Notes under the pieces: model-generated | The model's database searches: none | What the model saw: the letters and a program-made list of their open reading frames with translations, nothing else | What the model was told of the DNA's origin: nothing | Part shown: positions 36,370 to 36,530 of the stretch, piece by piece | Position numbering within the stretch: the stretch's first letter is position 1 | How the letters are laid out: each line of letters begins with the position of its first letter | Assembly: GCF_017348835.2 (NCBI RefSeq) | Contig: NZ_CP071375.1 | DNA length: 64,000 nt | Strand: one strand, 5' to 3' | Source of the DNA: Escherichia coli | GTDB taxonomy: Bacteria > Pseudomonadota > Gammaproteobacteria > Enterobacterales > Enterobacteriaceae | Program-made: the position numbers and the translations under genes

Positions 36370-36404
36370 GGGCAATATCTCGACCAGAGTGGTTAATAAA
36401 TATT

Positions 36405-36440
36405 GCCGCGGCATTATACAGAGCGTAACCGATTGCATCT
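36405..36440 (-). promoter_or_regulatory. guaBA promoter region with a pur-box-like operator and -10 element
   Basis: Minus-strand TATAAT (reverse complement of 36413-36418) and GCAATCGGTTAC (reverse complement of 36425-36436), resembling the PurR operator consensus GCAAACGTTTGC; both upstream of the guaB start. Confidence 0.45.
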
Positions 36441-36530
36441 ACCCCTTTTTGCAAAAAATGCTTGCTATCCCCGAAGGGCGGGTTACTATCGACTGAATAA
36501 CCTGCTGATTTAGAATTTGATCTCGCTCAC

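Follow-up and report, generated by a model that had tools for sequence, protein, structure and literature searches.

The guaB–xseA intergenic region of an Escherichia coli strain keeps the K-12 guaBA control region between two inserted islands

Which control elements lie between the divergent genes guaB and xseA, and are they intact in an E. coli chromosome that carries inserted DNA on both sides of them? The question is posed here for a stretch of 64,000 nucleotides (the window), in which positions 36370–36530 form exactly the 161-bp intergenic gap between the two genes. The guaB start codon, ATG, occupies 36369–36367 on the minus strand (+38 to +40 of the guaB transcript), as judged from the list of open reading frames, the sequence and the RefSeq annotation of an identical sequence; the longest guaB open reading frame (34903–36438) extends beyond this annotated start. 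The xseA coding sequence runs on the plus strand from its ATG at 36531 to 37907, has a product of 458 residues here versus 456 in K-12, and adjoins the sinH/adhesin island at its 3′ end. On the identical sequence RefSeq names the products IMP dehydrogenase (guaB) and exonuclease VII large subunit (xseA). A first-pass annotation, made from the sequence alone, had placed three motifs on the guaB strand within the interval, and all of them are present: TATAAT at 36418–36413, GCAATCGGTTAC at 36436–36425 and an A/T-rich block, a T6/A5 run, at about 36459–36446. An Rfam search of the gap returned no riboswitch and no other RNA family.

When these motifs were set against the mapped guaB promoter of K-12, the alignment held: the 221 bp at 36340–36560 are 100% identical to MG1655. 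The entire gap and the opening codons of guaB and xseA are thereby the same as in the K-12 PguaB described previously (Davies and Drabble, 1996; Hutchings and Drabble, 2000; Husnain and Thomas, 2008–2009), and the −10, the −35, the UP element and the PurR, DnaA, FIS and CRP sites lie at identical positions. No difference from K-12 PguaB was found in the control region; the differences are confined to the surroundings, namely two islands. Of 5426 complete E. coli genomes, 5425 gave a match to a 301-bp query around the gap, in one place each, and 5419 did so at an identity of at least 99%; the 69-bp core promoter segment, which runs from the UP element to +10, is the same in 5393. In E. coli HH97 (NZ_CP116409.1) the match was confined to the xseA half of the query (positions 147–301), so that the guaB promoter and the 5′ end of guaB appear to be missing at this locus.

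We conclude that the region is almost certainly the native back-to-back guaBA/xseA control region of E. coli, in the form that K-12 has. Since the sequence is that of K-12, everything mapped in K-12 applies directly here. It has been described in full detail before, and nothing in the control region is new; two points only are mildly so, namely that a marbox coincides with the guaB UP element and that the PurR box has been lost in particular lineages. Sequence identity, motif positions, statistics and cross-species conservation were computed in this study, and protein binding and regulatory effects are taken from the literature.

The guaB transcription start was numbered from statements in the promoter study of Husnain and Thomas (2008; PMC2885671), which give a CRP site at −117.5 and FIS sites at −11, +8 and +29. 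The start most probably lies at the G at 36406 (minus strand), the only position for +1 at which the CRP core is centred on −117.5 and the FIS sites at −11, +8, +9 and +29 show the mismatches described for them; one placement agrees with five independent published constraints. With this start, the G of the guaB ATG falls at +40, in agreement with the published figure, which runs from −253 to +40 (PMC2885671).

The −10 hexamer TATAAT (36413–36418, −12 to −7, minus strand) is followed by the GC-rich discriminator GCCGCG (36407–36412, −6 to −1, minus strand), and the two are 99% and 89% conserved, respectively, in an alignment of 39 Enterobacterales sequences, in which all figures are mean identity to the window sequence. 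TATAAT occurs 23 times in the 64-kb window and is not significant by itself; it draws its meaning from its position and from its conservation across the 39 sequences. The probable −35 hexamer, TAGATG (36436–36441, minus strand), is weak, with three of six matches to TTGACA, and was assigned from its distance to the −10 and from the core-promoter endpoint published at −37. The resulting layout is TAGATG, a 17-bp spacer, TATAAT and then 6 bp to +1, the spacer falling within the 16–18 bp of sigma-70 promoters. A generic promoter scan missed the guaB promoter because its −35 matches at only three of six positions; the sole output of the scan was the plus-strand TCGACT-16-TAGAAT at 36489–36516.

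The discriminator has been tied to stringent and growth-rate control (Davies and Drabble, 1996, as cited in PMC2885671). Sigma-70 RNA polymerase would start guaBA transcription at about 36406 on the minus strand from a consensus −10 and a poor −35, for which the A/T-rich UP element (−59 to −38) would compensate, and the GC-rich discriminator would make the promoter sensitive to growth rate and to the stringent response. An UP element at −59 to −38, a GC-rich discriminator and FIS binding are shared with promoters of the rrnB P1 type. The guaB promoter differs from these in that FIS represses instead of activating, binding downstream of or over the core promoter, and in that its −10 is consensus and its spacer 17 bp. 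The rrnB P1 spacer is 16 bp.

The PurR operator, or PUR box, ATGCAATCGGTTACGC, lies on the minus strand at 36423–36438 (−32 to −17, 54–69 nt from the guaB ATG) and overlaps the 3′ half of the −35 hexamer and the spacer, a placement over the −35/spacer found in 44% of PurR-regulated promoters. The sequence GCAATCGGTTAC, which the first-pass annotation had likened to a PurR operator, forms the centre of this 16-bp box and is present as a single copy in the window. Read on the plus strand, the box is GCGTAACCGATTGCAT, the very motif listed under the guaB-guaA PurR ChIP-chip peak of K-12 at the same offset from the ATG (Cho et al., 2011; PMC3159470), so that the proposed resemblance is borne out.

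A PurR weight matrix was built from 27 published ChIP-chip sites with the guaB site left out. On this leave-one-out matrix the guaB 16-mer scores 14.8 bits, compared with 11.8–25.0 for the training sites. Six sites in the real window reach 14.8 bits against a mean of 1.1 per 64-kb dinucleotide shuffle; two of these sites, the purM operator and the yfgO site, were known already. Counted by eye, the box matches the palindromic consensus ACGCAAACGTTTGCGT at 11 of 16 positions, with the central CG present, and its half-sites are symmetric at 4 of 8 positions only. It shares with the other operators of the pur regulon, which are bound by PurR, a LacI/GalR-family protein, the 16-bp length, the central CG and the conserved half-site cores of the GCAA/TTGC type. 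It is among the weakest of them, its score lying in the lowest quarter of known sites and well under their median of about 20 bits. Sequence with the central CpG, position in the promoter of a purine gene and conservation in orthologous promoters all place the box among PurR operators.

PurR has been reported to down-regulate guaB via a site overlapping the core promoter, a site called 'putative' in the same study (Husnain and Thomas, 2008; PMC2885671); Meng et al. (1990) is the source cited there for PurR regulation of guaB. The guaB-guaA peak has a ChIP enrichment of 0.84, the lowest in the published table, and was seen only with adenine (PMC3159470); binding in vivo only with a raised corepressor supply is a behaviour that the site has in common with pur operators (PMC3159470). 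Given that the enrichment at this peak is the lowest and adenine-dependent, PurR explains only a small part of guaBA control, and its influence on this promoter is weak and secondary. The earlier proposal of purine-responsive control of guaBA, which rested on the TATAAT (now at −12 to −7) and the operator-like sequence (now a published site), thus stands in a refined form, with PurR as a minor input. In mechanistic terms, PurR, a dimer of the LacI family that hypoxanthine or guanine activates, would bind the imperfect 16-bp palindrome at −32 to −17 and compete with polymerase for the −35/spacer, giving a modest purine-responsive repression of roughly two-fold, presumably by steric occlusion.

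An incomplete consensus match, poor internal symmetry, the weakest enrichment in the table and the word 'putative' could also be expected if the sequence resembled a pur box by chance, or were conserved merely as promoter spacer, with PurR inactive at guaB. Such a coincidence is hard to reconcile with the expectation of about 0.003 sites of this score in the 161-bp gap and with a ChIP-chip peak carrying the exact motif. The spacer version is addressed by conservation across species. A degenerate pattern for the GuaB N-terminus yielded 120 loci from species-representative genomes, and a symmetrised PurR matrix was applied to the 250 nt upstream of each guaB at a threshold of at least 10 bits. 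A site was found in 41 of 46 Enterobacterales (39 of the 41 at 58–73 nt from the ATG) and in 25 of 29 Vibrionaceae (71–182 nt from the ATG), as against none of the 10 Aeromonadales, none of the 30 loci of Alteromonadales and Moritella and 1.3% of shuffled upstream regions. The box is thus kept at its place in 39 of the 46 Enterobacterales, and its substitutions often run toward the consensus, many members of the order carrying nearer variants such as AGGCAATCGATTACGC (17.1 bits).

Mean identity to the window over the 39 aligned Enterobacterales is 82% for the PurR box and 72% for the UP element, below the −10 and the discriminator, and 43% for the spacer of the xseA promoter. The box has decayed at the guaB promoter in Rahnella, Rosenbergiella and Mangrovibacter, and partly in Shimwellia (six guaB upstream regions), and the −10, the discriminator and the UP element are retained in these genera. 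Decay of the box alongside an intact −10 and UP element argues that, elsewhere, the spacer is conserved on account of the operator and not of the core promoter. Taken with the published peak, this makes an inactive, pur-box-like spacer very improbable, and we keep to the reading of a weak but genuine PurR operator.

The UP element of the guaB promoter, GCAAGCATTTTTTGCAAAAAGG, lies on the minus strand at 36444–36465 (−59 to −38) and agrees at 13 of 15 specified positions with the UP consensus NNAAAWWTWTTTTNNAAAANNN, which is reportedly that of Estrem et al. from 1998. It corresponds to the A/T-rich upstream block of the first-pass annotation, which thereby coincides with the published element. 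This element has been reported to enhance guaB transcription strongly and to be needed for growth-rate control (Husnain and Thomas, 2008; PMC2885671).

The same bases contain a MarA marbox, GCATTTTTTGCAAAA, on the minus strand at 36447–36461 (−55 to −41 of guaB). It is an exact match to the guaB<>xseA site listed in Table 1 of Sharma et al. (2017; PMC5684230), a study that gives EMSA, footprint and reporter data, and no sequence difference separates it from the MarA-activated xseA promoter of that study, in which activation of this promoter was found to depend on the marbox and a role in tolerance of ciprofloxacin was reported. Like marboxes in general, which span about 15–20 bp, it is asymmetric, with a GCA element, an A-rich 3′ part and a promoter-adjacent position, and in Salmonella the equivalent site is bound by MarA, RamA and SoxS (PMC10268841). 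The exact match to so well documented a site, and the binding of its Salmonella equivalent by three regulators, might be read to mean that the A/T-rich block serves the xseA side and not the guaB promoter, a reading that is scarcely credible given that the identical bases fit the UP consensus at the canonical −59 to −38 and that the reported strong enhancement of guaB transcription by these bases, with the published drop in activity, refutes its exclusive version. The better reading is that the A/T block is dual-purpose, serving as the UP element of guaB and as the MarA marbox of xseA, since the two roles are not mutually exclusive.

A probable xseA promoter lies on the plus strand, with a −35 of TTGCTA (36462–36467), a 16-bp spacer, a −10 of TACTAT (36484–36489) and a predicted start near 36495–36497. 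In the 39 Enterobacterales, the TTG of the −35 is 90–99% conserved per base and the −10 averages 90%. The MarA study places the xseA promoter immediately beside the marbox (PMC5684230), which fits TTGCTA-16-TACTAT and does not fit the TCGACT-16-TAGAAT returned by the generic scan; the latter was rejected as the xseA promoter on this ground. TAGAAT, which lies within the conserved leader, may represent an alternative promoter. The predicted xseA leader (36497–36531), which includes the CRP site, is 85–89% conserved across the 39 Enterobacterales, above either −35 hexamer. Transcription of xseA would thus start about 90 bp from the guaB start, back to back with it and with the marbox/UP element between them, and MarA bound to the marbox inside the guaB UP element would activate the xseA promoter.

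The marbox (−55 to −41) falls wholly within the guaB UP element (−59 to −38), a point absent from the first-pass annotation, and the predicted xseA −35 (36462–36467) overlaps the distal UP subsite. The MarA paper mentions neither the overlap of marbox and UP element nor an effect of MarA on guaB (PMC5684230), and the guaB-promoter paper does not address an effect of MarA on guaB (PMC2885671). From this arrangement we propose, tentatively and as the less probable outcome, that MarA induced by salicylate or antibiotic stress could displace alpha-CTD from the guaB promoter, lowering guaBA transcription and GTP synthesis at the same time as xseA is activated. If true, a single site would link guanine-nucleotide supply and growth rate to the response to antibiotic stress.

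Sites for three further proteins surround the core promoter. The FIS site 1, a 15-mer centred at −11, overlaps the −10 and has two mismatches at critical positions, as published (PMC2885671). The guaB 5′ leader (36370–36405, minus strand) carries FIS sites 2 (+8), 2′ (+9) and 3 (+29), whose mismatch patterns correspond to the site categories of that paper. Site 2 spans +1 to +15, beginning at 36406, and has G and C at its ends and T at −3 (category 2); site 2′ lacks the G at −7, as published; and site 3, at +29, agrees at each of the five critical positions and has a G at −3 (category 1) (PMC2885671).

A CRP site with the core TGTGAGCGAGATCAAA lies on the minus strand at 36516–36531, centred at −117.5 of guaB. 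The core is of the TGTGA-N6-TCACA-like form, with 9 of 10 half-site bases, and is 89% conserved; it shares bases with the xseA start codon and is located downstream of the predicted xseA transcription start. CRP binding and its position at the guaB promoter have been described (PMC2885671), as has binding of DnaA at guaB (PMC2885671). Two DnaA-type boxes were seen. The DnaA-like box over the guaB −10, TTATACAGA (36414–36422, plus strand), has one mismatch to TTWTNCACA; boxes with one mismatch are about as frequent in the window as chance would give (114 found, 119.5 expected), and sequence alone lends the box over the −10 no statistical support. The box inside guaB, TTATCCACA (36156–36164, +243 to +251, minus strand), is perfect and corresponds to the title of Tesfa-Selase and Drabble (1996). 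Further down-regulation of guaB would come from FIS at −11, +8 and +29, from DnaA, both over the −10 and within guaB, and from CRP at −117.5.

Around this control region, three insertions were found relative to K-12, at 22548–33250, 37808–48362 and 57479–62333, and the guaA-guaB-xseA block at 33251–37807 is collinear with K-12. The statement of the first-pass annotation that the promoter is intact next to an island-bearing region is therefore correct, and insertions of about 10.5 kb lie on both sides of the block. This housekeeping segment has kept a canonical, K-12-identical control region despite mobile or variable DNA inserted on either side, and K-12 knowledge on guaBA and xseA regulation is transferable to this strain; beyond annotation, the importance of this is small. 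The 24 kb around the locus match the pig isolate PE164 at 100%. The best matches to the 301-bp query are O157:H7 genomes; these lack the xseA-side island, and O157:H7 was rejected as the identity of the window.

The guaA-side island (22548–33250, about 10.7 kb) lies downstream of guaA, next to its 3′ end, and replaces K-12 yfgH-yfgI. It encodes a tyrosine integrase (31762–32952), a LuxR-family regulator, an HTH protein, a RepA-family helicase, traJ, trbJ and trbL, and contains a traJ-II RNA at 26883–26981 and an IS3 element with an ALIL pseudoknot at 22883–22999. It resembles guaA-integrating islands such as GIsul2. A search for attachment-site direct repeats flanking this island found none. 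Four intergenic copies of a 16–22-nt palindromic motif, TTTTAGCGGCTAAAAT, occur in it at 26365, 27252, 30856 and 31692; we take the motif to resemble the IncP KorB operator TTTAGCSGCTAAA.

The xseA-side island (37808–48362), between xseA and yfgJ, encodes a 2136-residue adhesion-domain protein (37976–44386), a SinI-family protein and the inverse autotransporter SinH, and an Rfam match to the ES036 (CssrF) sRNA lies within it at 44556–44598. The third insertion (57479–62333, about 4.9 kb) lies between ndk and pbpC, where O157:H7 carries genes of the DMSO/selenate-reductase family; a PurR-like site of 16.8 bits is found inside it at 58288–58303. A strong PurR-like site of 18 bits, ACGGCAACGATTGCGC, lies at 12796–12811 inside the uraA coding region and is absent from the published PurR ChIP-chip table (PMC3159470). 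Weaker PurR-like matches occur at 11261, inside hda, and at 30728, inside the guaA-side island. Finally, pdeF (about 20999–21965 in the window) carries, in the matching PE164 record, the annotation of a pseudogene with an internal stop.
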